From Pseudomonadota bacterium (GTDB lineage Bacteria; Desulfobacterota; Desulfobulbia; Desulfobulbales; SURF-16), in assembly GCA_018816555.1 (NCBI GenBank), contig JAHIVT010000059.1, positions 7,309 through 71,308 of the forward strand: a DNA stretch of 64,000 bases, read 5' to 3'. Both the position numbers and the translations under genes were made by a program. Positions 6,214 to 41,806 of this stretch are shown piece after piece; positions within the stretch are counted from its first letter, which is position 1; each line of letters starts with the position of its first letter. The notes beneath the pieces are model-generated. The model saw nothing but the letters and a program-made list of their open reading frames with translations. It searched no databases and was not told where the DNA came from.

Positions 6214-7604
6214 GACCTCCCTACGACCATCAGTTCCGCCTTGAAATCATCCGGCGCATTGTCCCAGTATAATGCCAAATTGTTGCCTTTCACCACATTG
6301 CCCCATTGATCGCCGTGATGGTTGATCTGGAAGTAGAGGCAATGCGCCCGCCGGGGCAACTCCTGGGGCGGGATGGCAAGATGTTCCAGCGCAACGCCGG
6401 GAAGCGCCCGGGCTATCAAGAGCGGCAAAGACTCCCGTGAGCCGAGTTTGGCGATGCCCTGCAGGGCGTCGAGCACCTGCTGGGGCTCTTCTTCCGTCTC
6501 CACCACCAGATAATAGCGGTTGCCTTCGGTGAAATGAGCCGGCAACAGATCACCGATGTAATAAGTTCCGTCAAAGACCAGCCTGATGATGTATTCGGGA
6601 CCGGCGGTGATCTCATCAAGCAGCCTGGAAATCAAAGACTGGGCGGCCAGGAAGCATCTGCCCAGGTCATTATGGTTGTAAGCGCCGAGCAGGGCCTGGC
6701 CGTCGTCCAGTTCCCCCAGCACATTGACGGTGCTGGAAAAGGAGGACAGCTCGCCGATCAGCTGGCGCAGCAGTCCGAAAACAGGCCAGGGATGGGTGCA
6801 GGCCGGTTCGGTGAGATGAAACAGCAGCGGCACATACCTGTTCAAGGTGCGCAGGGCCAGCATGAAGACCATGTCCCGGGCACCGAAATCGCTGGTGTGG
6901 ATGCCACGCTGGGCCTTGTACTCATTAAGCTGCCGGCTGCGGCTGCCGATCTGGTCCCGGATGTTTTTGACGGTCTGGAGGAGAACCTCCGAACTCTGTA
7001 TGGTGACCGCAGGTGGGGCAAAGCCCGGAACAAAACGGATCACCTCGCCGTCCCTTTCCAGCTGGGCCAGGGGGAGAAGCAGATAATCGCCCACCATTTC
7101 CTTTTCGCTGTCCCAGAAAAGTTTCAACACCATGTGCAGTTTTTTCACCTCGCCGGGCGGGCCGTTCTCATAGAGGTCGTTGATCTGTTCCGGCTCGGCC
7201 AGGGTCACATAGCGGGTCGACACCTCGCCTATCTTGTCAAGACTTGCCAGCTCCGTCACATTGCTGCCGACCTCATCCAGTTTTTTCAAACCGAGATAAA
7301 CGGTGAAACGCTTGTCCTCCTCAACCCAGGCGTTTTTGAAAGATCGCTTCGCCAGCACGGCATTGCCCGGGAAGACCACATAGGTTCCGTCCTGAAAGAC
7401 GAACTCCCCTTTCAGGATGTCAAAGGAGAAATTGTCCAGCGCCCCCCGGGAGGCCTCCATGGCCGCCACACCCCAGAAGTAGGGATTGAGAAATTTGCGG
7501 AACGGCTGGTGCAGATCCTGGATATACAGGTCATGCTGCTGAAAATGATGGGGCTGGAGAAAAAGCCCCTGGTGCCAAAAAATTGATCGGTTGATATCCA
7601 CCAT
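6210..7604 (-). CDS. tssK: T6SS baseplate protein TssK (ImpJ/VasE)
   Basis: The N-terminus MVDINRSIFWHQGLFLQPHHFQQHD matches the TssK signature W-x-x-G-x-F-L-x-P-Q-H-F-Q-Q. I prefer the ATG at 7604 (SD-like GGAAGGGG upstream) over the track start at 7676. Confidence 0.85.
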   Translation of the reverse strand: MVDINRSIFWHQGLFLQPHHFQQHDLYIQDLHQPFRKFLNPYFWGVAAMEASRGALDNFSFDILKGEFVFQDGTYVVFPGNAVLAKRSFKNAWVEEDKRFTVYLGLKKLDEVGSNVTELASLDKIGEVSTRYVTLAEPEQINDLYENGPPGEVKKLHMVLKLFWDSEKEMVGDYLLLPLAQLERDGEVIRFVPGFAPPAVTIQSSEVLLQTVKNIRDQIGSRSRQLNEYKAQRGIHTSDFGARDMVFMLALRTLNRYVPLLFHLTEPACTHPWPVFGLLRQLIGELSSFSSTVNVLGELDDGQALLGAYNHNDLGRCFLAAQSLISRLLDEITAGPEYIIRLVFDGTYYIGDLLPAHFTEGNRYYLVVETEEEPQQVLDALQGIAKLGSRESLPLLIARALPGVALEHLAIPPQELPRRAHCLYFQINHHGDQWGNVVKGNNLALYWDNAPDDFKAELMVVGRS

Positions 7605-29716: not shown

Positions 29717-30268
29717 TCATCCCCTGGCCTTGGGGTAAAGCGAGAGAAGGAATTCCTCATCCTGCAGAATTTCCTGAAATCTTGAATAATTATCCCGAAA
29801 ATTCGCCGAAGCTTTCCCTTCCTTGATCAATAATTCAGCCGCCTGCTCAAGCATTCCCCTGGAATGATCCCTTATAGCATAAAAAATCTTGTCAAGAATG
29901 AACTGCGTTTTTTTCTCATAGGGTGGGACTTTCTTCAAAAGGGCAATTTCCGCGTGTCTCAATGTCGGATTCGAACATAAGGCAAACAATTTCGGTGTAT
30001 CATAGATATCTGCCGCCTCCAGAAAACGATACTGCATCTCCGCATCAAGTTCCCTGAACGCTTTCCTGAGCTGTCCCTGCTCTTCACCGCTTTTTTCCGC
30101 CAGTAACAAACGGATATAGGGCGTTATTTCTTCCTGAGACAAAATTCCTTTTCTGAAGACGCCTATAAGCCACCTGATCTTCATTTCCGGACTTTTTGAG
30201 ACAAAGGGAAGACATCTCTCCAGCCAGTTATTGGTCTTTTTATTTTTTAAAAAAGATATCATATTCAA
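29717..30268 (-). CDS. Hypothetical protein
   Basis: A 183-aa ORF downstream of and co-oriented with the CheY-like gene. No motif recognised. Confidence 0.45.
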   Translation of the reverse strand: MNMISFLKNKKTNNWLERCLPFVSKSPEMKIRWLIGVFRKGILSQEEITPYIRLLLAEKSGEEQGQLRKAFRELDAEMQYRFLEAADIYDTPKLFALCSNPTLRHAEIALLKKVPPYEKKTQFILDKIFYAIRDHSRGMLEQAAELLIKEGKASANFRDNYSRFQEILQDEEFLLSLYPKARG

Positions 30269-30898: not shown

Positions 30899-31831
30899 AT
30901 GTCAAACGCCAAGAAAACCGCCCCCAGCAAAACAATTATTATCCTTGTTCTTCTCGCCCTTGCCGCTGTTGCAGCATTGCTGATAGTAAATGCCAGCCGG
31001 AAAGCGGACAAAAAAACGGCCATCTCCCTGGAGCAGGAGCAGCAGAAACTCCAGGAAAAGGTAAATATTCTTGACAAGGAACTTGCCGCCCCGGAAGGCT
31101 CCGAATCCGGAGGTCAGAGCGAATCTGCCGGCATGCAGACCGAGTCCGGCGCCGAGGCTGATAACCAGGCAGCAGGCAAAGACATTACCATGGATCCCTG
31201 CAAAACCACCTCAGCCGGAATTGATAGGTTTTTTACCCGGCTGGACCAGGAAGATTACATTATCGATCTCAACCTGGAAGGCGGTTCAAAGGCATACTTC
31301 ATCACGGTCATCAATAAGCTGCTGGCCAACAAGCCCACCATCACCAGGGAAACTGACAATCTGCTGTCCATACTCCAGAATGCCGCCCACTTTTATCGTG
31401 TGCTGGGCGAAAAAAATATCTTTACCCTGAAAAAAATCATGGCCCTGGAAAAAGGTCAATTAGAACCGGTGATGGCTGACTTTTACTCTCTCATCCTGCA
31501 CCGGGATGAATGCCTGAGCGTTCAATATCCGATCCAGTTGCCCATGGAGGATTTGTACAGCTATTCGACCTTCTTTCTCAATACCCTCGGAGGCCAGTCC
31601 TATCTGTTTCGCCGAGAACCGGCTTTCAGGACCCTGGTCAAATATTACTGCGTGCTGGTCATGGACCTGGCCAACATGAAGAACGCCAATCCTCTGGGCA
31701 TTGATATCAGATATCCCATCAACAGCCTGATCGAGGAAATGACTGCGACATCCGGCCTGGAGAATAAGGACAAATACCTGGATAATCTTCTCCAGCTGCA
31801 GGAAAAGTATAAAACACTGTATGGCAACTGA
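30899..31831 (+). CDS. Hypothetical membrane-anchored protein
   Basis: 310 aa. It has an N-terminal TM anchor (IIILVLLALAAVAALLIV), then a coiled/acidic linker. No family recognised. Confidence 0.5.
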   Translation: MSNAKKTAPSKTIIILVLLALAAVAALLIVNASRKADKKTAISLEQEQQKLQEKVNILDKELAAPEGSESGGQSESAGMQTESGAEADNQAAGKDITMDPCKTTSAGIDRFFTRLDQEDYIIDLNLEGGSKAYFITVINKLLANKPTITRETDNLLSILQNAAHFYRVLGEKNIFTLKKIMALEKGQLEPVMADFYSLILHRDECLSVQYPIQLPMEDLYSYSTFFLNTLGGQSYLFRREPAFRTLVKYYCVLVMDLANMKNANPLGIDIRYPINSLIEEMTATSGLENKDKYLDNLLQLQEKYKTLYGN

Positions 31832-31878
31832 AATCTGAGATTCCCTGATTTCCGCCAACCTGGCCATAACATAAAGAA

Positions 31879-31912
31879 AGGGAACTGACCGCACAGTCAG
31901 TTCCCTTTTTTT
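31879..31912. terminator. Rho-independent terminator hairpin between the convergent 310-aa gene and the RyR gene (end of the cassette)
   Basis: The stem pairs agggaactgac (31879-31889) with gtcagttccct (31895-31905), followed by a T-run to 31912 on the plus strand. The minus-strand tail is T/C-rich, so it may act in both directions. Confidence 0.7.
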
Positions 31913-31933
31913 ATGTCTATTCTGTTCAAGCAA

Positions 31934-32251
31934 TTATTGCCGAAAAATTCCAAGCCTGATCATTTCGGCAATGATCGCCTTGGCACCCTCCACGTCGATT
32001 CGTTTTTCCGATTCCGGGAGGTGCTCATACGGGACGAGATTCGGCTGCAGCTTCCGGGCTTCATCCCGCTCTTCCCCGTAGCGCCACCCCTGGCCAATCC
32101 TCTCCGCCGCCCACCTGTCATGGTTGACCCGGGCGATTGCCTCCAGCGCGTCGCCCATGACCGCTGCCGCACGCTCCAGTTCGTCGCGACCGGCAATCCG
32201 CGGCTCATACTCCCCGAAAGGTGTCGCGATCTTTTTTACTGCCGCGCTCAA
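31934..32251 (-). CDS. Small RyR-domain protein (ryanodine-receptor repeat, Pfam RyR type); fourth gene of the cassette
   Basis: 105 aa. NHDRWAAERIGQGWRYGEERDEARKLQPNLVPYEHLPESEKRIDVEGAKAII matches the RyR pattern (H-x-x-W-x-x-x-R-x-x-x-G-W-x-Y-G...P-x-L-V-P-Y-x-x-L-P-E-x-E-K). A TTG start at 32251 overlaps the CHAT gene stop (TTGA), and an SD AGGAGA lies 7 nt upstream. Confidence 0.7.
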   Translation of the reverse strand: MSAAVKKIATPFGEYEPRIAGRDELERAAAVMGDALEAIARVNHDRWAAERIGQGWRYGEERDEARKLQPNLVPYEHLPESEKRIDVEGAKAIIAEMIRLGIFRQ

Positions 32252-34215
32252 GGTCTCTCCTTTTGGGGGGATACATTACTGTCACCGAGCGCGGCAAGTG
32301 CGGCCCTGGCAAAATCATCCCATTCATTTTGTTTCCAGATATCGACATAGCGGCGGAACTGCCGCATGGTTGATTGCACGGGAAACTCCTTGGGACCACA
32401 AGTTTCCAGGATCTCGTTGCAGCAACGGATAATTTCCTTCTTAGCCTCCTCCGCACTGTACTGCTCGCCTCCATAAAGAGCGCCCAGCATTTCCAGTTCC
32501 GCCAGCGTTCCGCAGGCCCAGGCCCGCTCGCTCCCAACCGCATTGAGCAACCTCCAGTGGCTGATTTGCCGAGCTGTGCTCCACCAGTGACCATGTTTTT
32601 TTGCCAATTCGGTCATGCCGACTTTTTCAGCCCTCATTAAGACCGCCAGCATTGACAGATACTGGGTGATAACCCAGTTGTTGGAGGGCTCGGCCACCAT
32701 GGCCTGCCTGTATAACAGGCAGCATTTCTGATAGGCTTCCAGTTTTTCCTTCTCCTTGCCTGCGATCTGCTCATAGGCGATGCCGATCCGTTTTTCACTG
32801 GCAGCGCTCACCCCCAGTCGTTCAGCCAGTTCCCTGTCGGAAGATTGCGCCTCAGGTTCTTCCCGCCATGCTTGCAGTTCCTCACGGATGGAGGCACAGA
32901 GACCATCCATCTCCCCGGTCACCGTTTTCTCATCCTGGCCCTCAAACTCTCCGATCTTGAGCAGATCATCGATCCGCGCGAATTTGGTTTCGATCCGCCC
33001 GCGGGTCTGCTTTTCGCGAAAATCGCTGACCTGATTTTCAAAATCCCAGGGCACGGTTGCATAGGTCACGATACTCGCCCAGTCATGCGTTTCCGGGCAA
33101 GAGGTGCGCAGACGCTGCCGCACTTCGTGGAGGACGCAGCGGGGATCGGCCCCCTTGAGCAGACGTTTGTACAGTACTTCAGTAAAGATGGTCGAGGAAC
33201 GCATCCACAGGGGAAACTGGGAGGCAAAGACCCAGGGGATGCCGGCGGCGTGCAGCTCGTGGGCTATGCTGCCGCCGGGGGTGAGCACGGAGCGCACATT
33301 GCCGGAATCGCAGGTTGCCAGCGAGAGCACAGTGGGCCGATGACGGGCGGCGCAGTCCAAAGCGCGGTCCGTGGTAAGGGCAATGGCGAGCCGCTCGCCG
33401 TCAACCACATCGACCTCTGCCGGGTTCGTGCTGTCGCACAACGCAAGCCCGTACTGCTGGTCGCCGGCATGATCATAGGGGGCGCCGTGGGCCAGGATAT
33501 GGACATGGGTGTACTCGGTATCCATACAGGCCTGCCGGATCTGCTCAAGCGTTGCTTCCGGCAGCACGGTGAGTATATTTTTTACCTCGGCCAGCCGCGC
33601 TTCCTCACTGTTCTTGATTTTTATCCAGGGGTCAATAGCGCGGCGCAGGGCAACCAGATGCCGTTCGGCAGGCACCACCGCGAGTCCGCCAGGGGAGGCA
33701 AAGATAAACAGGATGCGGGGCGGACGATTCCATTCCACCGGCAGGGGCCGGCCGCGCCGCACCTCCCTGGTCAGGGTGATGGGTGTCTTTGATTGCAGAA
33801 AGAGCGGCGAACCGGATCCGGGAAAACCTGCCGGGGCAATGGCCGCCTCAAAAGGCAAAAGAGCCAGTTCAAAACCGGAAAGCGACAGCCGCAGATGCAC
33901 AAACTTTCCCTTGGCCGCCTGGACGCTGCCGAGTTCGGCAAGCAGGCCGGGAACCTGGCCGAACATCTGACCGATGGTCTCGCCCAGTTCGCGCAGCTCG
34001 GCCTCCCGCTGACCTGCGGGCACAGGTGTTCCCTCGGTGTAATAGCGGAGCCGTTCCAGGCGGATGAGCAACTGCCGCTGTTCAAAGGGCAGGCGTACGG
34101 TCACCGGTCCGTCGGCACCGCAGAGGACGAGGTAAGGGGTCAGCGGTGACAGGAGCTGGTTGTGCGCCGGGCCGGGTCGCAGGATTTCCAGTTTGACGTT
34201 GTGGATCTCAGACAT
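32248..34215 (-). CDS. CHAT-domain (caspase-like) protease with a C-terminal helical-repeat region; third gene of the cassette
   Basis: The His/Cys dyad context is THVHILAHGAP (His codon at about 33487-33489) and VLSLATCDSG (Cys codon 33310-33312). An upstream ELALLPFE motif is typical of CHAT N-regions. I prefer the ATG at 34215 (MSEIHNVKLEIL) with SD GAGG, 4 nt after the stop of the upstream gene; the track ORF extends to 34362. Confidence 0.8.
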   Translation of the reverse strand: MSEIHNVKLEILRPGPAHNQLLSPLTPYLVLCGADGPVTVRLPFEQRQLLIRLERLRYYTEGTPVPAGQREAELRELGETIGQMFGQVPGLLAELGSVQAAKGKFVHLRLSLSGFELALLPFEAAIAPAGFPGSGSPLFLQSKTPITLTREVRRGRPLPVEWNRPPRILFIFASPGGLAVVPAERHLVALRRAIDPWIKIKNSEEARLAEVKNILTVLPEATLEQIRQACMDTEYTHVHILAHGAPYDHAGDQQYGLALCDSTNPAEVDVVDGERLAIALTTDRALDCAARHRPTVLSLATCDSGNVRSVLTPGGSIAHELHAAGIPWVFASQFPLWMRSSTIFTEVLYKRLLKGADPRCVLHEVRQRLRTSCPETHDWASIVTYATVPWDFENQVSDFREKQTRGRIETKFARIDDLLKIGEFEGQDEKTVTGEMDGLCASIREELQAWREEPEAQSSDRELAERLGVSAASEKRIGIAYEQIAGKEKEKLEAYQKCCLLYRQAMVAEPSNNWVITQYLSMLAVLMRAEKVGMTELAKKHGHWWSTARQISHWRLLNAVGSERAWACGTLAELEMLGALYGGEQYSAEEAKKEIIRCCNEILETCGPKEFPVQSTMRQFRRYVDIWKQNEWDDFARAALAALGDSNVSPQKERP

Positions 34216-34219
34216 GTCT

Positions 34220-35713
34220 TTACCTCGTGAACTGTTGAATGATCGTGCGGGTGACGGGATCGGTTCCTGCAATGTGGGCCAGTTCGCCGACCACTGTGCC
34301 GTCTTCGTCGGCCCTGATGCAGACCGCGCTCTGTTGCCGCAGGACAAAGGATTGCCGGTCAAAGACCGCCTGATCGATATCCTTCATCCGGCCTTTGACA
34401 AGCAGCTCATACACCGGCTTGAAGGTTTCTTCGCTGGCAAGCATGGCCTCGGTGAAACGGAGCAGGCGGATCCAGGTGCCGCAATTAAAATAAAAACGGC
34501 CGCCGCCCAGATCGATGGCGCGTTCAAGATGGGTATGACCGGTGACGATGAAATGGATACCCTGCCCCACCGAGTCGACCATCTCCTTGCAGGCGTCGTC
34601 CCGGTCCGCTATCTCGAAAGTCTTGTCACCCTTGAGCCAGTCTTTCAGTGCCCGGCGCAGGGCCTCGATCTTGCTGACGCCGCTAAACCAGCCGGTGAGC
34701 CGGTCCCAGAGATACTGGCCGGTACCGAGGGTTTCGTCCTGGGGATCAGTGACGGCGCTGCCGGTCTTGTATTGCTTTTCCGCCGCCAGCAGCAGGGCGT
34801 CGGCTGAGGGACGGCTGGCCCCGGCACCGCTGCGCAGTCCCTCCATGAGGTTTGGTCCCAGCAGACCCTCCACAGCCACGGGCCGTGCCTGCTTTTTGGC
34901 CGGGGCGGTGAAACCCTCGGCCGAAAGCCGCTGGTCCACCTCCCTGCTGCCCTCCACCTTCTCACCGATAACCGGGATGAGGCGGTTGATCTTTTCGAGC
35001 TGGCCGGGGTCAAGGGCCAGGAGCACGCCGACAGCGGCCGTCATCTCCGGTTTTAAAAGGTCAATCCAGGGATATTGCCCCTTCACCTTGTTCATGACGT
35101 CCTTGACCATCTTAGTGCCGGCGTTGGGCTCCCATTCGCCAGCCTTAAGCGATCGGCCGCTGTTGAGCCGCCGGGCCGCCTTGGCGAGGTCCTCGTAACG
35201 GACATAGTTCCAGGCGTCCACTTCGTTGCCGTGGGTGCAGAACACCCGGGCGCCGCCCACCAGGCAGGAGTAGCCGGCCCCCATGGTGGAAAACTCGATG
35301 CGGGCCCGGGCCAGGAGATCAGCACCGGCGAGCCGTTCGACCACGGCGCGCTGTACCACCGGAAAAGACAGCTCAAGGTCGTGGTTGCCAAGGGCGATGA
35401 CCAGGGTGCGTTTGTCAATTTTCACAAAATCCGCCAAGGCTTCCCAGATGGGGGCAAAAGCAGGATCTGCCATGATCCGTTTGATCACGGTCTCGGCATT
35501 GTCCACGGCGATGTAGCCGCCGCTCTCCTCGGCCAGGGTGTCGATGACATCACCGTTTAAGACCAGGGCCACTTGCCCGTCCGGCTTTTGTGCCGCCACC
35601 CAGCGGATGAATCCCGCCAGTTTCCCGGTCTCCCGGAGAATCTGAAAACCGGGTTCACCTCCCATGTGGAGGTCGGAGATGACATGAACTTCGTCGAATT
35701 GGGGTAAGGGCAT
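34220..35713 (-). CDS. Calcineurin-like metallophosphoesterase; second gene of the cassette
   Basis: All five MPE motifs occur in order: VISDLHMGG (DxH), NGDVID (GD), LGNHD (GNHD), CTHGNE (H) and VTGHTH (GHxH). A roughly 180-aa insertion precedes the last motif. An SD AAGGAG lies 8 nt upstream of the ATG at 35713. Confidence 0.8.
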   Translation of the reverse strand: MPLPQFDEVHVISDLHMGGEPGFQILRETGKLAGFIRWVAAQKPDGQVALVLNGDVIDTLAEESGGYIAVDNAETVIKRIMADPAFAPIWEALADFVKIDKRTLVIALGNHDLELSFPVVQRAVVERLAGADLLARARIEFSTMGAGYSCLVGGARVFCTHGNEVDAWNYVRYEDLAKAARRLNSGRSLKAGEWEPNAGTKMVKDVMNKVKGQYPWIDLLKPEMTAAVGVLLALDPGQLEKINRLIPVIGEKVEGSREVDQRLSAEGFTAPAKKQARPVAVEGLLGPNLMEGLRSGAGASRPSADALLLAAEKQYKTGSAVTDPQDETLGTGQYLWDRLTGWFSGVSKIEALRRALKDWLKGDKTFEIADRDDACKEMVDSVGQGIHFIVTGHTHLERAIDLGGGRFYFNCGTWIRLLRFTEAMLASEETFKPVYELLVKGRMKDIDQAVFDRQSFVLRQQSAVCIRADEDGTVVGELAHIAGTDPVTRTIIQQFTR

Positions 35714-35737
35714 TGCTGTTCTCCTTGGGTTAGATAG

Positions 35738-38686
35738 TTATGGTGTCTGAATGGTGGCCTTGGCCGGGTCGGCGACGGCCAGCAATTTTTCAAGTTCCTG
35801 GACTTCCCGGTCCCGACGGTGGTAGCCGGTTTCCGCGACCAGTTTTTTGACCTTAACTAGGTGTTCGCGGGCGGAGGGCAAGTCGTTTTCGGCCAGCAGC
35901 AGTCGGCAGCTCTCGAGATGATAATCGGTGAGGAAGAGACGCATACCGCAGCGTTCGGCGATTTCAAAAACTTCGTCCAGGTCGCGGCGGGCAGAGCCAA
36001 ATTGCCCCTGCTCCCGGCAGAAGAAGGCCCGGTCCAGCAGGCCGCGGGGAAGATAATCCTGTCTCCCTGCCTTACGCAGGAAATCAACGGCCACGGCCAG
36101 ATGGCTGACGGCTTCGGCCGTCTCGTCCAGCCGCTGGCAGGCCCGGCATAGGGTGAGATGGTCCAGGCCGATGTCGAGGGGCCAATTTTCAGCCTTAATC
36201 CATTCAAGAGTTTTCTCCGCCCGCTCCCTAGCCTCGGCCGGCCGGTCGAGTTCAAGGAGCAGGTCACAGTAGCGATAGCCCTGCAAGGAGTAGAGGAAAG
36301 GGTACTGGGGCTGGCACTCCCGCTGCATGGCCTCGGCCTGGCGGAACAGCTCCTCCGCTTCGGCCAACCGGCCGTCCTGATGGAGGGAGCCAGCACGGGT
36401 GGTGCGGGTGGCCAAGTGCCAAAAGGCATCACCGCTCTGGTCGGCCAGCTCCACCGACCTTTTCCCATACTCCATAGCCCGGTCCAGGTCACCCGTGACG
36501 AGGAAAAGTTCGCTGAGGTTGCCGGCAATGATGGTCGCATCTTGCCAATTTTCCTGCTGGACCCGCATTTCCAAACCGGCCCGCATCGGCCCGGCCGCCT
36601 CGTCCAACCGACCCAGGGCTCGGAGGCTGAAACCGGCCCAACTCAGAAGCGCCGCCTGATCAAATTCGCGAAGTCCGGTCGCGGGCCGGTCCCAAAGCTT
36701 CTCGAAAAAGTTAGCCAAGGCGCCCAGATCGGAGCCGAATGCGCCGAGTTTGCTCGTGCAGTAATGGTCGGTCATCCTTATGAGTCGTTGCCAGTAAACC
36801 TCCTCCAGCGTCTCCTGCTGCCGGCCGGCCCGGCAGCCATGGGCGCAGGCGTAAAAAAGCGGAGCCATTTCCTCGATGGTGTCCGGCAGTTCCCTGGCAA
36901 TGCCCTTGTAATGCTCATAAAGCCGCAGGTTGCCCTCCTGCCAGGCTGAGGGGAAATGCTTTTGAAGAAGGTCGGCCATATGCTCCCGCACCAGGGGGTG
37001 GCAGTCCAGGTCGCCGGGGCGATGGCTGCTTGTCGGGGCCAGGAGACCGAAGCGCCGCAGTCGACTGAGGCACTCATGGCGGTCTCCTTTTTCCACTGCC
37101 ATGATGCGGCCGGTCAACTCTGGGATGGCCGGCGGGGTGAGGAGTGCTGCCAGGGCCTCCCTGTCGGCCGGGCGATCAAAGAGGCCAAGGAGCCGCAGAT
37201 ACTCGACCTCCGGTGAATCCCCTAAAAGACCGACCAGGGCGGCCATAACCCGCCGGGGTTGGCGACCATGCTCCTCGGGGAGGTCCAGGTCAGGGATATC
37301 GGCCGCGTGTTGGATGTGGTGTTCGGGGATCTCATGGAGATAGGCGGCCAGGAGCTTGACGGCCAGGGCGTGGTTGCCAAAGGCTCGCGAAGCCTCCTCC
37401 AGCTCCAGGTCCGTGCCCCGCACCCCGCCCACGCGCAAAAGCGCTCGGCCGGCTGCGGCGGAAATCTGCTCCAGGTTGCGTGCCTGAACGGTTTGCGGGA
37501 AACGACGGAGATCAGCCACCTCTTCCCGACTGGTGATGAGGCAGAGGCCGGGATTATTCCTGGCCAGTTCCGTGACCAGGGCAGCAAGGCCGGGGTCCTT
37601 GATGCGGCCCTTGTCAAAATCATGCTCGGCCTGCAACGGCTCCAGGCCGTCCAGCACCAGCAGCGTCCGCTGCTGCTTGATGAGGCCTGCCAGCCGCTGG
37701 CCCTTGTCCCAGGGAGAGCCGGTAATAGGATTCGGGTCGCCGAACCAGGCCAGGGCCCCGGCAATGAAGCGGTCCGCCGAGGTGACCCGCTCCCCGCTCC
37801 CCTGGCTGTAAAAAGACCAGCCAAAGACTCGGGCCGCACCGCGATAGTTGTCCGCGGCCATCTCGGCAAGCCAACGGTTGACCAAAGTGGATTTGCCCAC
37901 CCCACCCCAGGCAACAAAAGAGATAATATTGGTTTTGCCCTGCTCCCAGGCACTGTCCAGTAACTCAAGCTCCGCCTCCCGACCAAAGAGTTCTGCCCCG
38001 GTTATAGGCAGACGGGAGATCTCCACCGGAGGCAGCAATAATTCCAAGAGCGAGGTTGGCGTACTTGATTGGCTGAGTGCTTCTTCCGAAAAGTCAATGT
38101 TGAGCAAGAAATCCTGTTCTGTGGGAATGTCCTTATCAGAGAGGCCCGGCAGTGACGGTCCCATTACATTGCCAAGGATCTCATCAATCAACAGATTTTC
38201 AAAAACGAAAGCCTCATGCTCCGGGACGGTCTGCTGCGCCTGTTCCGCCACCTTGATAGCAAAATCCGCGAGCTGCTGTTTCCGCTTTGTTTTACCCCTA
38301 ATGGCAGCAAGACACTTGTTGCCGGTGGGAAACATCTGGATGCCTTTGAGCCAGCGGATGGCCTGCCACGGGCAGGGCTCAGCCAGTAGGGGCAGGATGG
38401 TCAGGTTTTCAGCCGCCCGCCGTTTAAGCAGGGCCGGCACCTCCTCCTTGATGATAAAATCCGAGGCCAGAAAATTTTTGGTGATGAGGCAGACCGCTAC
38501 TCGGGCCCCCTCCACCGCCTCTTTAATCTCCGGGTACCAGTCAGCGCCGGTGTTGATCTTGCGGTCATGCCAGAGCAGCAGATCGCCTTGCTGCTCAAAT
38601 GCCTTGAGATGGGGGAGAAGCTGATTTTTCCACTCCTCATCCAGGTGGCTATAACTGATGAACACCGTGGGCCTGGCAGTACTCAT
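35738..38686 (-). CDS. TIR - NB-ARC (STAND NTPase) - TPR protein; first gene of the cassette
   Basis: The N-terminal TIR is TVFISYSHLDEEW...ARVAVCLITKNFLASDFIIKEE. Walker A is AWGGVGKSTL (DNA 37886-37907). Walker B is NB-ARC-like, TLLVLDGLE, followed by CLITSRE. About 550 aa of C-terminal TPR-like repeats follow. The start is either the ATG at 38686 or the TTG at 38746. Confidence 0.85.
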   Translation of the reverse strand: MSTARPTVFISYSHLDEEWKNQLLPHLKAFEQQGDLLLWHDRKINTGADWYPEIKEAVEGARVAVCLITKNFLASDFIIKEEVPALLKRRAAENLTILPLLAEPCPWQAIRWLKGIQMFPTGNKCLAAIRGKTKRKQQLADFAIKVAEQAQQTVPEHEAFVFENLLIDEILGNVMGPSLPGLSDKDIPTEQDFLLNIDFSEEALSQSSTPTSLLELLLPPVEISRLPITGAELFGREAELELLDSAWEQGKTNIISFVAWGGVGKSTLVNRWLAEMAADNYRGAARVFGWSFYSQGSGERVTSADRFIAGALAWFGDPNPITGSPWDKGQRLAGLIKQQRTLLVLDGLEPLQAEHDFDKGRIKDPGLAALVTELARNNPGLCLITSREEVADLRRFPQTVQARNLEQISAAAGRALLRVGGVRGTDLELEEASRAFGNHALAVKLLAAYLHEIPEHHIQHAADIPDLDLPEEHGRQPRRVMAALVGLLGDSPEVEYLRLLGLFDRPADREALAALLTPPAIPELTGRIMAVEKGDRHECLSRLRRFGLLAPTSSHRPGDLDCHPLVREHMADLLQKHFPSAWQEGNLRLYEHYKGIARELPDTIEEMAPLFYACAHGCRAGRQQETLEEVYWQRLIRMTDHYCTSKLGAFGSDLGALANFFEKLWDRPATGLREFDQAALLSWAGFSLRALGRLDEAAGPMRAGLEMRVQQENWQDATIIAGNLSELFLVTGDLDRAMEYGKRSVELADQSGDAFWHLATRTTRAGSLHQDGRLAEAEELFRQAEAMQRECQPQYPFLYSLQGYRYCDLLLELDRPAEARERAEKTLEWIKAENWPLDIGLDHLTLCRACQRLDETAEAVSHLAVAVDFLRKAGRQDYLPRGLLDRAFFCREQGQFGSARRDLDEVFEIAERCGMRLFLTDYHLESCRLLLAENDLPSAREHLVKVKKLVAETGYHRRDREVQELEKLLAVADPAKATIQTP

Positions 38687-38746
38687 CCGATTCTCTTTCC
38701 GGGTTGGCTGTTTAGCGGGAAATGGGGATGTTGACGTCTTCCCCAA

Positions 38747-39018
38747 AAATGAATGATTGCTCAGAAAAAAACCCGCAATTAAAGAATTTGCAAGAGAAAA
38801 CTGCTATGAGATGGCAGGAAAAAGAAAAAAAAGGAAGAAAGCGGATGGGGATGTAGGGGCACCCCTTGTGGGTGCCCTATCCCAGGCGGATACCGAATTG
38901 GCCATCATGCAGTACGCGAACTCTAACTGCCTGGACAGTGGCAAACAACGGGTAGCCCGCTCCCAGGGCACCCACAAGGGGTGCCCCTACAGGAATGACA
39001 ATTGGCAATCATTCATTT
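38747..39018. repeat. MITE-like 272-bp element bounded by 14-bp perfect terminal inverted repeats and containing a pair of inverted palindromic modules
   Basis: The terminal inverted repeats are aaatgaatgattgc (38747-38760) and gcaatcattcattt (39005-39018). The internal module tgtaggggcaccccttgtgggtgccct (38862-38888) recurs as its reverse complement at 38964-38990, and each copy is itself a hairpin (gggcaccc/gggtgccc). Confidence 0.7.
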
Positions 39019-39063
39019 GTACCCCGTGTCATTCCCATGCAATCGTCCCGCCTAGATACAAGG

Positions 39064-39085
39064 GGGGCGGTTCGCGAACCGCCCC
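39064..39085. repeat. Perfect 22-bp GC-rich palindrome
   Basis: The sequence is ggggcggttcgcgaaccgcccc. It lies about 40 nt downstream of the BI-1 gene stop on the minus strand, with no T-tail. Confidence 0.7.
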
Positions 39086-39123
39086 TACTAATTCCCCGTG
39101 GCAAAAGCCAGGCCGGGCGACAA

Positions 39124-39960: not shown

Positions 39961-41037
39961 TTATTTCTTTGCACTCATTAATATAGCCACTGCTCTCGTC
40001 GAGTCAAGCTGTTCAAAGGCTATTTTCAAGGCGGCGGTCAAGGGAACCGACAGCAGCATGCCGGCAATTCCCCACATCCAGCCCCAGAAAACCAGGGAGA
40101 GCAGAACCACCAGGGGACTGAGGTTAAGACCCCTGCCCATAACCTTCGGTTCCAGGATATTACCCACCACCATCTGGATGAGGACCAGGATAAGCGCCAC
40201 CAGGGCGGCCTTACCGAAACCGAACTGAAAAAGGGTGATGGCCACCGGCGGCAGCACGGCTATCAGCGAGCCGATATTGGGGATGAAATTCAGCAGAAAG
40301 GCCAGCACCCCCCAGAGCAGGGCAAAGGGAACGTCAAAAAGCGCCAGGGCAATGGTGACCAGCACGCCGGTCAACAGACTGATCAGGGTCTTCAGGCCGA
40401 GATAGCTCTGCACCGCCTTGTTGATCCGGCCAATGACCTCAAGCGTCGGCTTGGCATTTTTCGCACCCAGCCCCTCGACCAGACGCTGGGTGATGCTCTC
40501 CCGCTCGGCCAGCATGAACACCATGATCAGAATCACCCAGAACATGTTGCCGAAAAAGGAAAAAAAGGAACCGCTCAAGCGCTGCACCATGCTGCCTATG
40601 GGTTGCAGATCGACCTGTTTGAAGCTCTTGATAACCGAGTCGTACATTTCCCGGGCCTGATCGGGGCTGATATTGAACCATTTGAGCAGATACGCGGCAT
40701 AGTCCCAGAATTTCTTCTCAAACTCGGGAAGCTGCTGGTAAAATTCTTTAATATTAAGGCTTACCATGCTGCCGATGAGATAGATAACACTGAGGATGAA
40801 GAAAACCACGATGATGATGCGCAGAGAGCTGGGGACTTTGAGACGCTGCAGGATTTCCATGGGAATGCCCAGGGCGTAGCAGAGCAGCAGCGAGATGAAA
40901 AAAGGGACAAACAGGAAGCCCAGGGTTTTGAAAATGAGCGTCATGCACACCAGCAAGGTGGCCCAGGCCGCAGCCTTGACCACTCCGAGCCCTTGGAACT
41001 TCATCATCTTTTGCATTTCTTCTCGTCTATTTTCCAT
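39961..41037 (-). CDS. AI-2E family transporter (PerM/YhhT-like)
   Basis: A polytopic membrane protein with the AI-2E C-terminal pattern (NFIPNIGSLIA, GNILEPKVMG, LSPLVVLLSLVFWGWMWGIAGMLLSVPLTA). The start is uncertain: I chose the ATG at 41037, just after the MBL gene stop, while the track ORF extends to 41202. Confidence 0.75.
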   Translation of the reverse strand: MENRREEMQKMMKFQGLGVVKAAAWATLLVCMTLIFKTLGFLFVPFFISLLLCYALGIPMEILQRLKVPSSLRIIIVVFFILSVIYLIGSMVSLNIKEFYQQLPEFEKKFWDYAAYLLKWFNISPDQAREMYDSVIKSFKQVDLQPIGSMVQRLSGSFFSFFGNMFWVILIMVFMLAERESITQRLVEGLGAKNAKPTLEVIGRINKAVQSYLGLKTLISLLTGVLVTIALALFDVPFALLWGVLAFLLNFIPNIGSLIAVLPPVAITLFQFGFGKAALVALILVLIQMVVGNILEPKVMGRGLNLSPLVVLLSLVFWGWMWGIAGMLLSVPLTAALKIAFEQLDSTRAVAILMSAKK

Positions 41038-41041
41038 TTCT

Positions 41042-41806
41042 TCACGTCTCTGAAAGAATTCTAAACATATCACCCGGTTCCGGCAGAAAAACATGGAGCC
41101 CGCCAGTTCCGTCCAGCCCGGCAACTTTTTTCTTGGCGGTTTCTCTGCAGGTTCGCTCCAGATGTACCAGGGCAAGATGTTTCCCCCCGGCGCGGCTGGC
41201 AAATTCGAGGCATTTCATGATATTGCCGTGGTTTTCCACCTCCCTGTCCAGCCTGAAGGCCTCGTGCACGATCAAATCACATCCTGCTGCCAGAGTTTCC
41301 GTTTCCCTGGTCGGCCTGCCATCCCCGCTGTAAAAAATCCGGTGGCTGCCGTCATCAATGCGTATGGACAGACAACGCTGGGAATGGATATTTTCCGCCG
41401 AGCTCCAGTTCGTGCCGGCAATTTCCCGGGCCTGTCCCGGTTCTATTTCCACAAAATCAAGGTGGTACATGAGCCGCGGCAGAAAGCCGGGGTAGGCAAG
41501 CTCCATGGCCGCCGTAATCTTTTCCAGGATGCCCTGCTGCCCGGCAATAACCAGCTTTTTCCTCCGGCCCATTTCCCAGAATCTGAGGAGCAACAGCGGC
41601 ATGCCGAAAAAATGATCGCCATGAAAGTGAGAAATCCAGACAGCGTCCAGTTCGTCCGGATCGCTGCTCAGACCAAAATAGAGATGGGGGGTGGTAAAAC
41701 CGCAGTCCAGCAGGAACCGCTGCCCCTTTCCCGCTGTCACATGAAGCGAGGTATTGGGACAGTGTTGATCGCAGGCTTCGCCAACCCCTAAAAAGTGTAT
41801 TTTCAT
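41042..41806 (-). CDS. MBL-fold metallo-hydrolase (RNase Z-like)
   Basis: 254 aa. The HxHxDH motif is ISHFHGDHF and the N-terminus is MKIHFLGVGEA. Confidence 0.75.
   Translation of the reverse strand: MKIHFLGVGEACDQHCPNTSLHVTAGKGQRFLLDCGFTTPHLYFGLSSDPDELDAVWISHFHGDHFFGMPLLLLRFWEMGRRKKLVIAGQQGILEKITAAMELAYPGFLPRLMYHLDFVEIEPGQAREIAGTNWSSAENIHSQRCLSIRIDDGSHRIFYSGDGRPTRETETLAAGCDLIVHEAFRLDREVENHGNIMKCLEFASRAGGKHLALVHLERTCRETAKKKVAGLDGTGGLHVFLPEPGDMFRILSET

Follow-up and report, generated by a model that had tools for sequence, protein, structure and literature searches.

A TIR-STAND-TPR receptor and its operon partners in a desulfobacterotal genome: comparison with Avs, plant TNL and Thoeris systems

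Prokaryotic NLR-like STAND receptors, the Avs/AVAST proteins among them, are a described class (Gao et al., 2020, 2022), and a 2026 survey comprises 589 STAND clades (PMC13581612). The receptor presented here is encoded in a window of 64,000 nucleotides (contig JAHIVT010000059.1, assembly GCA_018816555.1), for which domain identities, conservation of catalytic residues, fold, gene order and recurring gene associations were computed. As in Avs/AVAST, a single polypeptide joins an effector at the N-terminus to a STAND NTPase and, at the C-terminus, a TPR-like sensor; within its family effectors are swapped (TIR, PNP, Mrr), and the family is patchily distributed across phyla. It differs in that its NTPase and sensor have no PADLOC match to Avs, bNACHT or TIR-NLR models. 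Further, the family usually lies outside recognisable defence neighbourhoods, its sensor is strongly conserved across phyla, and in the window the receptor gene leads an operon containing genes that may respond to a signal.

Plant TNL receptors such as RPP1 and ROQ1 possess the same order of TIR, NOD and repeats and the same conserved catalytic Glu. Foldseek aligns about 610 columns across the TIR and NOD of RPP1, and signalling by a small molecule to a separate executor is a possible further likeness. In contrast to the plant proteins, the receptor has TPRs in place of LRRs and no C-JID, its NOD remains under the Pfam NB-ARC threshold, its Walker B reads DGxE and not DDVW, and 13-16% of the residues are identical. 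Convergent assembly of the TIR-NOD-repeat architecture is more likely than direct descent; for the NLR architecture such a convergent assembly was reportedly proposed by Urbach and Ausubel in 2017. The best overall structural match is PH0952 (6mfv; E 1e-12, 767 columns). A NOD-arm-TPR layout is common to PH0952, MalT (1hz4) and the receptor; the former two are transcription regulators with DNA-binding effector domains, whereas the receptor has a TIR.

The operon as a whole invites comparison with Thoeris. A precedent is type IV, in which N7-cADPR made by the TIR switches on the caspase-like protease ThsE (10.1101/2024.10.24.620036); in type VIII cADPR activates ThsI, which has a TPR sensor. 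Similarly, in the window a TIR gene is followed by a gene for a caspase-superfamily protease whose C-terminal domain may sense nucleotides, PADLOC classes the TIR as ThsB-like, and the protease shares its TPR-S-like domain with ThsI-type effectors. Differing from Thoeris, the TIR resides in a 982-aa NLR-type receptor instead of a short ThsB, the protease is of the CHAT family and always paired with a metallophosphoesterase, and the operon also contains a RyR-domain gene of the host. Avs-type TIRs were explicitly left out of the published Thoeris screen.

Craspase (Csx29-Csx30) and SAVED-CHAT-PCaspase, CHAT proteases with dedicated adjacent substrates, resemble the window CHAT: the protease carries a domain for regulation or sensing, and its partner gene always lies next to it. 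Here, however, the partner is a calcineurin-like phosphoesterase, a CRISPR association is absent, and cleavage of the partner is a prediction. Finally, the phage protein RyDEP (PMC13232231) shares PF02026 with the window RyR protein, which retains the H...W...D spacing. In contrast to RyDEP, the window protein is host-encoded in a putative defence operon, the phosphate-binding His is a Gln, and its role would be regulation and not immune evasion.

Gene model and domains of the receptor

The receptor gene is located on the minus strand (35738..38686) and codes for 982 aa, as delineated by motifs, domain calls, an AF2 model (pLDDT 88.3) and Foldseek. An ORF at 35738..38746 on the minus strand begins with TTG. 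Judged by sequence comparison the true start is the ATG at 38686, because the N-termini of homologues (MSTARPTVF) align there and a Shine-Dalgarno-like stretch, GGAAAGAG, precedes it. The protein is composed of a TIR domain (residues ~6-152), a disordered linker (157-212), NBD (225-405), HD1 (410-465), WHD (475-565), an arm (566-660) and about eight TPR-like repeats (674-977). Mean column identity in an alignment of 118 homologues is 51%, and the domain assignments lie well outside what chance would produce.

The domain order of TIR, STAND NTPase and helical-repeat sensor, as proposed in an earlier note on this DNA, is correct. Next to VFISYSH (8-14), the motifs GGVGKST (Walker A, 261-267), LLVLDGLE (Walker B, 342-349) and CLITSRE (382-388) are present where that note described them. 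The extents of the domains required revision. The TIR exists as claimed and reaches to about residue 152 instead of spanning about 120 aa, and the linker, thought to be about 150 aa long, has about 55 disordered residues, compared with only about 25 in most homologues. The repeats were rightly called TPR-like (TPR_MalT, TPR_12); they form a sensor of about 300 aa (about 400 aa if the arm is counted) and not of 550 aa. HD1 and the winged helix, which belong to the NTPase module, occupy residues 410-565.

The TIR coding region (38231..38671, minus strand), supported by TIR_2, PADLOC ThsB1 and phmmer, contains a conserved KEE motif with E81 and E82. TIR_2 (PF13676) reaches 52.5 bits (cut-off 28, E 8.6e-14), TIR (PF01582) 31.3 bits (cut-off 21.3), and the best TIR match in PADLOC is ThsB (ThsB1, 1.6e-18). 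The catalytic Glu, the absence of which would have spoken against the earlier proposal, is present: phmmer aligns E81 or E82 with the catalytic Glu of the plant TIRs 3jrn (AtTIR), RPP1 (5teb) and 7xoz, the motif compared being WCLDEL or SxWCLxEL in the plant alpha-C helix. Across 118 sequences E82 never varies, and conservation of E81 is 90% or higher; both are within a helix modelled by AF2 (76-91). Profile and catalytic Glu are consistent with a TIR of the enzymatic class, and cleavage of NAD+ is predicted. Phmmer also aligns the TIR domains of TLR1, TLR2 and TLR6 with that of the receptor, as one would expect of a non-catalytic adaptor recruiting partners via TIR-TIR contacts as in animal TLR signalling. 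We consider such an adaptor function hardly conceivable, because the position of the catalytic Glu is invariant, the domain matches ThsB and plant TIRs with enzymatic activity best, and the operon encodes no second TIR protein.

The NOD module, NBD-HD1-WHD (36992..38014, minus strand; residues ~225-565), was recognised by sub-threshold profiles and Foldseek. Its STAND features are GGVGKST, LLVLD (342-346), the sensor-1 R387, GNHALAV (437-443) and H563 (H563-P564). The order of secondary structures in the AF2 model, i.e., NBD, helical domain, winged helix and repeat sensor, fits STAND. Profiles for NACHT, AAA_16 and NB-ARC give sub-threshold matches in 11 of 11 family members, and the receptor itself stays below threshold for all three. 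Its NB-ARC score (PF00931) is 13.9 bits against a gathering score of 23.5, and NACHT (PF05729) is narrowly missed with 24.1-25.9 bits against 26.7; the best family members attain E-values of 2.5e-5 and 1.5e-7, respectively. A search with the NOD retrieved 2,773 cluster representatives at E<=1e-30.

A tiny residue following the Walker B Asp and an acidic residue at +3 are the NACHT hallmark; NB-ARC has DDVW at this place. The hallmark is said to have been defined by Koonin and Aravind in 2000. The receptor has D346-G347-L348-E349, with D, G and E invariant. Unlike the NB-ARC sequence LLVLDDVW, with which the earlier note compared it, LLVLDGLE has DG, not DD, and looks NACHT-like. By eye, GNHALAL resembles GLPLAL and AHPLVRE resembles MHDLLRD. 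Of the suggested plant-NLR likeness the domain order persists; membership in the NB-ARC family is not supported by the score or by the NACHT-like DGLE.

Structure comparison points in another direction within the superfamily. Foldseek with the AF2 model returned STAND proteins only, the nearest being PH0952 (6mfv), RPP1, Apaf-1, CED-4 and the wheat G10 and the NRC4 resistosomes. NACHT proteins are absent from the top 50, in which the AP-ATPase members RPP1, Apaf-1, CED-4, G10 and NRC4 are present. The PH0952 clade is the sister of the APAF1 clade (PMC6468293). The assignment of the NTPase to STAND is thus borne out by the profiles in all 11 members and by the Foldseek neighbours. Sequence and model suggest a STAND switch ATPase from the Apaf-1/PH0952 side of the superfamily, beneath the limit for Pfam NB-ARC.

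The sensor and the receptor family

The C-terminal sensor (35738..36667, minus strand; residues ~674-982) resembles MalT domain III. The profiles TPR_MalT and TPR_12 both exceed their cut-offs, and Foldseek matches the sensor with MalT domain III (1hz4) at a TM(target) of 0.70. The C-terminus is an all-helical TPR without an LRR profile match. Between syntenic relatives no other part of the receptor differs nearly as much as the arm and TPR half, with 64-66% identity and a dS of 0.8-1.3 compared with 0.13-0.19 in flanking genes. It is a divergent allele within otherwise near-identical genomic contexts, and recombination has replaced the sensor half among close relatives. Mosaicism by recombination is seen in the sensor half as well as in the MPE-CHAT cassette described below. 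The earlier view of the C-terminal repeats as a ligand-sensing surface gains indirect support from the strong divergence of the arm/TPR half.

The receptor family counts over 3,500 homologues, with identities of about 50%, in bacterial phyla and archaea. Its spread across domains is patchy, including ANME and Methanosarcinales archaea, which by sequence distribution implies horizontal transfer. In 78 of 79 genome loci the receptor gene is solitary, i.e., neither MPE-CHAT nor any recurrent neighbour is present, so the receptor does not depend on MPE-CHAT. A shared NOD-TPR chassis bears other N-terminal effectors, namely PNP_UDP_1, Mrr_cat, DUF4062, SEFIR and other TIRs. Solitary loci combined with swappable N-terminal effectors are characteristic of an Avs/NLR-like receptor that is complete in itself. 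In PADLOC 2.0 no Avs, bNACHT or Rst_TIR-NLR model matches the NTPase or the sensor; matches are limited to a ThsB-like TIR, SAVED_TIR and a weak TPR model. The family is missing from the family-level models of NCBIfam, PADLOC and Pfam that were used.

One might ask whether such a protein is antiviral at all. A conserved switch for stress or programmed cell death, operated by an endogenous ligand, would account for the high conservation and the ordinary genomic neighbourhoods. Across phyla identity is about 50% over the full length including the TPR (conservation index 0.58 versus 0.62 for the TIR), and neighbours are mostly housekeeping families, recognisable defence neighbourhoods being unusual. 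Full-length copies were not found on plasmids or phages, and in four related genomes the gene occupies a conserved chromosomal position. Yet we regard this explanation as quite improbable. The patchy spread across domains implies horizontal transfer, defence receptors typically exchange their effector for nuclease or PNP domains as this family does, the gene is located within a GC-anomalous island, and it is the sensor half which recombination replaced among close relatives.

Operon partners and the question of a TIR signal

The receptor gene is the first of a four-gene operon on the minus strand. It is followed after 24 nt by a gene for a calcineurin-like metallophosphoesterase (MPE; 34220..35713, minus strand, 497 aa). 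PF00149 scores 36.4 bits against 21.5, and the residues of the metal-binding motifs DxH, GD, GNH(D/E), H and GHxH are invariant (D14, H16, D55, N110, H111, H161, H393 and H395). A C-terminal extension of about 320 aa has no recognised fold. Four nucleotides past the MPE stop codon begins the gene for a caspase-like CHAT protease (32248..34215, minus strand, 655 aa; PF12770, 84.5 bits against 24, E 1.2e-23), in which the dyad H243/C302 is invariant in 53 sequences. TPR-S matches 23 of 37 C-termini of the CHAT family (best 1.6e-5), the match in the window's own copy being weak (15.6 bits, E 0.025). A TPR of this type is predicted to sense TIR signals and is present in the cADPR-activated effector ThsI (10.64898/2025.12.03.692087). 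MPE and CHAT are obligate partners: they occur together in 77 of 80 loci, contig ends cutting the other three, and have more than 1,100 homologues.

The start of the last gene overlaps the CHAT stop codon. It encodes a Repeat12-type RyR-domain protein of 105 aa (31934..32251, minus strand; PF02026, 65 bits against 27.4, E 7.3e-18), which in phmmer matches RyR1 Repeat12 at 1.4e-28 and 3nrt at 2e-13. Its N-terminus is conserved, and the orthologue in locus L080 has an ATG at the aligned position. By spacing, H75, W78, H100 and D117 of RyDEP correspond to H44, W47, Q69 and D86; relatives have His where the window protein has Gln. RyR-domain proteins bind or hydrolyse 2'/3'cADPR (PMC13232231).

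Each of the four products is independently tied to NAD-derived nucleotide signalling, and herein lies the interest of the operon: the TIR as producer, the TPR-S as predicted sensor, the RyR protein as cADPR binder or hydrolase, and the MPE, which may process nucleotides or be a toxin activated by the protease. Taken alone, the receptor is one more prokaryotic TIR-STAND receptor, of a strikingly large and conserved family with thousands of 50%-identity clusters in bacteria and archaea.

Does the TIR signal to the MPE-CHAT cassette? TIR-bearing genes are positioned directly upstream of, and co-directional with, MPE-CHAT in at least four independent lineages, with three to four different sensor architectures. 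These are TIR-STAND-TPR (the window clade and the Nitrospirota locus L004), LRR-Roc-COR-TIR (two groups), X-TIR (L094) and a TIR together with a TPR protein (L114/115). A TIR gene occurs within 6 kb in 7 of 25-31 MPE-CHAT lineages, compared with 4 extra TIR genes across 79 control loci; about three quarters of the lineages have no TIR within 6 kb and neighbours of the housekeeping type. The earlier note had named the receptor the probable trigger of the downstream genes; this is plausible but not established. That an NLR-type TIR drives a Thoeris-like cascade is likewise plausible, with the chances evenly divided.

The same locus might harbour two unrelated systems in one hotspot, i.e., a single-gene abortive-infection receptor with a NAD+-depleting TIR beside an independent MPE-CHAT(-RyR) module, without cross-talk. 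This would agree with the solitary occurrence of the receptor family in 78 of 79 loci, its swappable N-terminal effectors and the autonomy of MPE-CHAT in most loci. Close relatives differ in cargo: in L080 the orthologous receptor is followed by an alpha/beta-hydrolase-CHAT-TPR-S protein in place of MPE-CHAT. Relative to L089 the receptor has a dS of 0.43-0.9 and the MPE-CHAT-RyR cassette one of 0.11. These discordant values indicate different histories of receptor and cassette, and also fit two independent systems. A TIR screen treats Avs-type TIRs as NAD+-depleting effectors (10.64898/2025.12.03.692087). We nevertheless consider the coincidence of two systems rather unlikely. Varied TIR-bearing sensors would then have come to lie immediately upstream of MPE-CHAT, and in the same direction, in independent lineages. 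Moreover, both alternative cargos are CHAT proteins with TPR-S, the RyR protein with its cADPR-binding fold accompanies both modules, and the genes have operon-like spacing without an internal terminator.

On balance, we are inclined to view the receptor as a prokaryotic NLR-like (Avs-like) immune receptor, the TIR product of which probably serves in this lineage also as a second messenger for the operon. We infer the ligand, oligomerisation, chemistry of the TIR product, sensing by TPR-S and cleavage of MPE by CHAT as follows, the receptor mechanism by analogy with solved STAND receptors. At rest ADP would be bound in the NOD, and arm and TPR would hold the receptor closed. The probable ligand is a cue of infection or a conserved phage protein; its binding to the TPR would permit exchange of ADP for ATP and head-to-tail oligomerisation. 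Clustering of the TIRs would create composite active sites centred on Glu81/82, at which NAD+ would be cleaved. In solitary family members, the majority, NAD+ cleavage would be the entire output. In the lineage of the window the TIR product probably doubles as a second messenger. Sensing by the CHAT protease, via its C-terminal TPR-S, would lead to cleavage of targets, most likely with the obligate partner MPE among them. The RyR-domain protein may bind or hydrolyse stray signal of the cADPR type and so set a threshold.

A more specific version is offered tentatively, with the odds somewhat against it. It would see here the bacterial counterpart of plant TNL signalling, in which TIR-NOD-TPR, elsewhere an LRR-Roc-COR-TIR GTPase, responds to infection by generating an ADPR-derived messenger for CHAT-TPR-S, which activates or cleaves MPE, the RyR protein acting as buffer or off-switch. 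The operon thus poses the question whether NLR-type and ROCO-type bacterial receptors act upstream of a separate executor by way of a small molecule, as happens in plant TNL-EDS1 immunity and in Thoeris. If so, MPE and CHAT-TPR-S (with RyR) would be a new effector module for TIR signalling; MPE-CHAT is at present an uncharacterised module of two genes. Large switch-NTPase receptors, and not short ThsB proteins alone, would then generate signals in prokaryotes, and bacterial RyR-domain proteins, of which only a role in phage counter-defence has been characterised to date, would gain a host-side function.

Operon boundaries and upstream region

The GC content is 0.60-0.61 throughout the operon, and terminators are located only at its two ends. 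Downstream, a strong hairpin (31869..31916) lies between the convergent RyR and orf310 genes and is likely a bidirectional terminator that closes the operon. Upstream, the intergenic region (38687..39123, minus strand) comprises an AT-rich leader, a Bax1-I terminator hairpin (39064-39085) and a pair of perfect inverted repeats of 27 nt (38852-38878 and 38965-38991).

Gene model, architecture and TIR domain of the receptor

The open reading frame of the receptor occupies 35738..38746 on the minus strand and opens with TTG. An ATG is located at 38686 where close homologues begin with MSTARPTVF, and a purine-rich Shine-Dalgarno-like stretch lies just 5' of it. Since this ATG matches the homologue starts, the coordinates of the earlier note (35738-38686, 982 aa) are right. 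The motifs quoted there are all found in the order given: VFISYSH (residues 8-14), GGVGKST (261-267), LLVLDGLE (342-349) and CLITSRE (382-388). Pfam recognizes a TIR_2 domain at residues 8-117 (52.5 bits vs. a cut-off of 28), and TPR_MalT and TPR_12 span residues 719-952. A NACHT match at 262-415 stays below threshold (24.1 bits vs. 26.7), as does a match to AAA_16; the full-length protein has no NB-ARC match in Pfam.

Domain boundaries were taken from an AlphaFold2 model which rests on 118 homologues (pLDDT 88.3, pTM 0.74). The model predicts a TIR domain (residues ~6-152), a disordered linker (157-212), the NBD (~225-405), a helical domain (410-465), a winged helix (475-565), an arm (566-660) and a sensor of sixteen paired helices, i.e., about 8 TPR-like repeats (674-977). 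This revises earlier length estimates. The linker, previously put at about 150 aa, has ~55 aa in the model and only ~25 aa in most relatives; the repeat region, thought to comprise about 550 aa, shrinks to ~300-400 aa. According to Foldseek the sensor resembles domain III of MalT (1hz4, TM 0.70 on target).

The plant TIR domains of AtTIR (3jrn), RPP1 (5teb) and 7xoz were aligned to the receptor TIR by phmmer. The receptor stretch 'NFLASDFIIKEEV' aligns over the plant sequence 'NYA(A/S)S(S/R)WCLDELV', and the catalytic Glu of the plant TIRs corresponds to E81, or to E82 in one alignment. Among 118 family sequences E82 never varies, and E81 is conserved in at least 90%. The alignment which the earlier note proposed for locating the catalytic Glu thus finds it present. 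PADLOC recognizes the TIR as the sole part of the receptor, as ThsB-like (1.6e-18). The identity as an NLR/Avs-like TIR-STAND-TPR protein with a TIR predicted to be catalytically competent is solid. TIR-STAND-TPR proteins have been known from bacteria for a long time, so a plant-NLR-like domain order is nothing new there.

Affiliation of the NTPase module

Sequence profiles are equivocal with respect to the clade of the NTPase module (NOD, residues ~225-565). In 11 diverse NODs of the family, NACHT, AAA_16 and NB-ARC each match every member, with best E-values of 1.5e-7, 3e-7 and 2.5e-5, respectively. For the NOD of the receptor itself none of the three reaches its gathering score. The evidence from motifs is mixed. 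Judged by eye, the helix ahead of the P-loop together with GGVGK(S/T)T is similar to NB-ARC, and the family motifs GNHALAL and AHPLVRE we take to resemble GLPLAL and MHDLLRD. The Walker B motif had been likened to the DDVW of plant NB-ARC proteins. This comparison fails: the D-G-L-E of the receptor instead carries what we take to be the NACHT signature, a tiny residue after the Asp and an acidic one at +3.

Searching the PDB with a NOD profile gave marginal matches confined to the P-loop region, TnsC (E 0.08) and wheat NB-ARC 9h2l (E 0.09), the latter being the only STAND match. When distant NB-ARC or NACHT relatives were sought with the NOD among 1.84 billion representatives, the best 150 matches were all family members. 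An AlphaFold2 model of the NOD alone, built from 11 sequences, has a pLDDT of 49.6.

The predicted structure favors a position of the NOD toward the Apaf-1 side. When the full model is compared with the PDB by Foldseek, the top match is PH0952, a STAND-TPR protein of archaeal origin (6mfv; E 1e-12, 767 columns), followed by RPP1, Apaf-1, the wheat G10 resistosome, CED-4 and NRC4. The RPP1 alignment extends over ~610 columns and covers TIR plus NOD. NACHT proteins are absent from the top 50 matches. The PH0952 clade is reported to be the sister of the APAF1 clade, with MalT in a basal position (PMC6468293).

A receptor family without a fixed partner, and MPE-CHAT as an obligate module

More than 3,500 proteins are related to the receptor at E<=1e-5 in a word-indexed search. 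The best 120 of these are full-length, share 50-80% identity and come from bacteria (Proteobacteria, Thermodesulfobacteriota, Acidobacteriota, Planctomycetota, Chloroflexota, Bacteroidota and Poribacteria) and archaea (ANME-2 and Methanosarcinales). A NOD-module profile retrieves 2,773 cluster representatives (50% identity) at E<=1e-30 from 1.84 billion proteins. Source annotations read 'TIR domain-containing protein' and nothing more, NCBIfam holds no family model for these relatives, and full-length relatives were not found in plasmid and phage collections. Family-wide, the TPR region is conserved nearly like the TIR (conservation index 0.58 vs. 0.62); therefore, the family probably recognizes something conserved.

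In the family cluster 29 of 87 proteins are not matched by the window TIR in BLAST, several being merely fragments. In about 20 of these 29 the alignment with the window protein does not start until about residue 220, with ~50% identity. The N-termini which replace the TIR are other TIR or SEFIR types, PNP_UDP_1, Mrr_cat and DUF4062. Exchange of N-terminal effectors on a constant NOD-sensor chassis is a hallmark of Avs/NLR-like single-gene receptors. Because of these swaps we argue that the TIR is the receptor's own output domain. Very probably, the protein serves as an NLR-like receptor in immunity or abortive infection and acts through its TIR. Four family representatives, P0241 (1,726 aa), P0261, P0275 and P0340, have N-terminal regions of 600-980 aa ahead of the NOD and look like larger or tandem architectures; the NOD profile matches P0241 in two stretches.

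A survey of 79 genome loci encoding receptor relatives yielded no conserved neighbor when flanking ORFs were clustered, and in a Pfam tally of 136 immediately adjacent genes no family accounts for more than 4. MPE and CHAT follow a receptor relative in a single one of the 79 loci (L004, from a Nitrospirota MAG), which rules out MPE-CHAT as the normal partner of the family.

In the window three minus-strand genes follow the receptor. The calcineurin-like MPE (34220-35713; Metallophos 9e-9) begins after a 24-nt gap, the CHAT protease (32248-34215; CHAT 1e-23) after a further 4 nt, and the gene of the 105-aa RyR-domain protein (31934-32251; PF02026 7e-18) overlaps the CHAT stop codon. All four genes have a GC content of 0.60-0.61 vs. 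0.43-0.55 in the flanks. Strong hairpins are confined to two places: one (39064-39085) follows the Bax1-I gene upstream, the other (31869-31916) follows RyR. The metal ligands of the MPE are invariant (D14, H16, D55, N110, H111, H161, H393, H395); its profile has no meaningful match in the PDB. In all 53 sequences compared, the H243/C302 dyad of CHAT is unchanged. Pfam TPR-S, the candidate sensor of a TIR-made signal, is detected in 23 of 37 CHAT C-termini of ~270 aa (best 1.6e-5), weakly so in the window copy (15.6 bits); an HMM built from the CHAT C-terminus proved too narrow to pick up TPR-S in other proteins. The RyR-domain protein matches Repeat12 of RyR1 (1e-28, phmmer). Phage proteins with an RyR domain (PF02026) have nanomolar affinity for 2'/3'cADPR; one of them, RyDEP, hydrolyses these signals via H75 and D117, and its W78 and H100 are in contact with the ligand (PMC13232231). 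Judged by residue spacing and not by alignment, H44, W47, Q69 and D86 of the window protein may correspond to RyDEP H75, W78, H100 and D117. In the third position the window protein has Gln (Q69), its relatives His.

More than 1,150 proteins are homologous to the MPE, at ~60% identity. In 77 of 80 metagenome loci CHAT follows directly, usually after 8 nt; the remaining 3 loci end at a contig edge. The pair is also present in Methylocaldum, Desulfosediminicola and a third genome. Given this pairing, MPE and CHAT form an independent module of two obligate partners. Its usual flanks are unrelated genes, e.g., GMC oxidoreductase or lipase_3, and a full receptor precedes it in 1 of 80 metagenome loci (L089, closely related to the window).

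TIR proteins of other architectures are encoded next to the module in lineages of MPE-CHAT that are independent of one another. Genes for LRR-Roc-COR-TIR proteins lie directly upstream and co-directional in the group L133/134/138-144/147 and in L163; in L134 a 657-aa TPR-S protein (L134:983-2956) precedes this gene. These proteins (L134:2967-5831, L163:2124-5474) are ROCO-family GTPases with a C-terminal TIR, and the LRR-GTPase-TIR architecture in bacteria deserves separate study. The genes of a 434-aa X-TIR protein in L094 and of a 400-aa TIR protein in L114/115 likewise lie directly upstream and co-directional, the latter being followed by the gene of a 989-aa TPR protein. Downstream, additional TIR genes occur in L120, L125 and L163. 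With near-identical loci collapsed and at least 3 kb of upstream sequence required, 7 of 25-31 MPE-CHAT lineages have a TIR gene within 6 kb; as a control, all 79 receptor loci together contain 4 extra TIR genes. A special TIR subtype which tracks MPE-CHAT is unsupported, since the neighboring TIRs either share just 30-40% identity with the window TIR or escape detection by tblastn.

The RyR-domain gene follows CHAT in the window clade. It also follows MPE-CHAT without a receptor (L090, L091) and is convergent after CHAT in L114/115. In L013 it comes directly after the receptor relative, MPE-CHAT being absent. This Nitrospirae family member (L013:7014-11083) has an N-terminal extension of ~330 aa, the RyR-domain gene encodes 92 aa, and a further TIR gene (6354-7007) is located just upstream of the receptor relative.

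The closest genome by flanks, L080, has another gene in the slot after the orthologous receptor, and MPE and CHAT are absent there. The protein encoded by L080:10998-16427 (1,809 aa) combines two DUF7379/alpha-beta-hydrolase (LCAT-like) regions with a CHAT domain, and its C-terminus carries TPR-S (28.5 bits, above cut-off). Because this protein also carries both domains, both cargos of the slot comprise CHAT plus TPR-S proteins. Conflict-system caspase-like peptidases are regularly paired with an alpha/beta-hydrolase gene (Kaur et al., 2020; PMC7159879), a parallel to both cargo types seen here. In type VIII Thoeris the cADPR-activated ThsI holds a TPR domain of the type predicted for TIR signaling by Burroughs and Aravind (2020); that screen left out the TIRs of Avs proteins on purpose as presumed NAD+ depleters (10.64898/2025.12.03.692087).

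History of the locus and proposed coupling of receptor and cassette

Compared with L080 the flanking genes are almost identical (SNF2 97.8% aa identity, dS 0.13; Bax1-I dS 0.19; RyR dS 0.155). Within the receptor dS is 0.44 in the TIR, 0.36 in the NOD, 0.83 in the arm and 1.31 in the TPR region, with dN/dS close to 0.2 in every part. Both dN and dS climb toward the 3' half, and this joint rise indicates allele replacement by recombination. Point-mutational positive selection on the sensor is ruled out by a dN/dS of ~0.2-0.3 and by the raised dS itself. The pattern marks arm and TPR region as the part exchanged between lineages, as would suit a specificity determinant. In the comparison with L089 the MPE-CHAT-RyR cassette has a dS of 0.11, the receptor 0.43-0.90 and a backbone gene 0.69. 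Set against L080, L082, L083 and L089, the locus 31934-38686 is a recombination mosaic. The backbone is nearest to L080, the cassette to L089/L083 (94-96% aa identity), and the arm-TPR half of the receptor is equidistant from all four (64-66%).

The earlier note had proposed the receptor as the trigger of the downstream genes. This cannot be extended to the family at large; for this operon it stands as a reasonable hypothesis. It is reasonable because a TIR producer, a putative TPR-S sensor, a putative RyR binder or hydrolase and a phosphoesterase are transcriptionally coupled, and because comparable gene sets occur repeatedly around TIR-bearing switch proteins of unrelated kinds. The proposal is weakened because, by dS against L089, receptor and cassette have different histories within the clade and because most MPE-CHAT pairs have no TIR close by. 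Taking both sides together, the chances that the receptor signals to CHAT, MPE and RyR appear evenly balanced to us; that the adjacency is a hotspot coincidence we consider less likely.

Three points are not represented in the curated resources queried, with the 2026 STAND survey tables outside the comparison: the size and conservation of the receptor family, the MPE plus CHAT-TPR-S (plus RyR) module, and the recurrent pairing of MPE-CHAT with large TIR-bearing NTPase sensors, ROCO-type included.

Between the Bax1-I terminator and the receptor lies a perfect 27-nt inverted repeat pair (38852-38878 / 38965-38991) with an 86-nt spacer. Each arm is a GC-rich hairpin (GGGCACCC ACAA GGGGTGCCC). The repeat has two copies in the window, where chance would predict none, and could be either a MITE/REP-like element or a scar left by an insertion at the island boundary. 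Further upstream, 2.4 kb from the receptor, a metallo-beta-lactamase-fold gene (41042-41806, minus strand) weakly matches Anti-Pycsar Apyc1 (PF23023, 1.3e-4). It is syntenic in L080, L082 and L083, where the precomputed Apyc1 match is stronger, and its product could be a cyclic-nucleotide phosphodiesterase of the host or just a housekeeping enzyme resembling RNase Z. An AI-2E transporter ORF (39961-41202, minus strand, TTG start, 413 aa) overlaps this gene by ~160 nt; its true start is probably further downstream, because the L080 orthologue has 349 aa. L082 and L083 lack the transporter gene between the metallo-beta-lactamase-fold gene and Bax1-I. Near the island, two syntenic ORFs at 30899-31831 (plus strand, 310 aa) and 29717-30268 (minus strand, 183 aa) have no Pfam match. 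The region from 28 to 32 kb has a low GC content of 0.43-0.50 vs. a window mean of 0.54.
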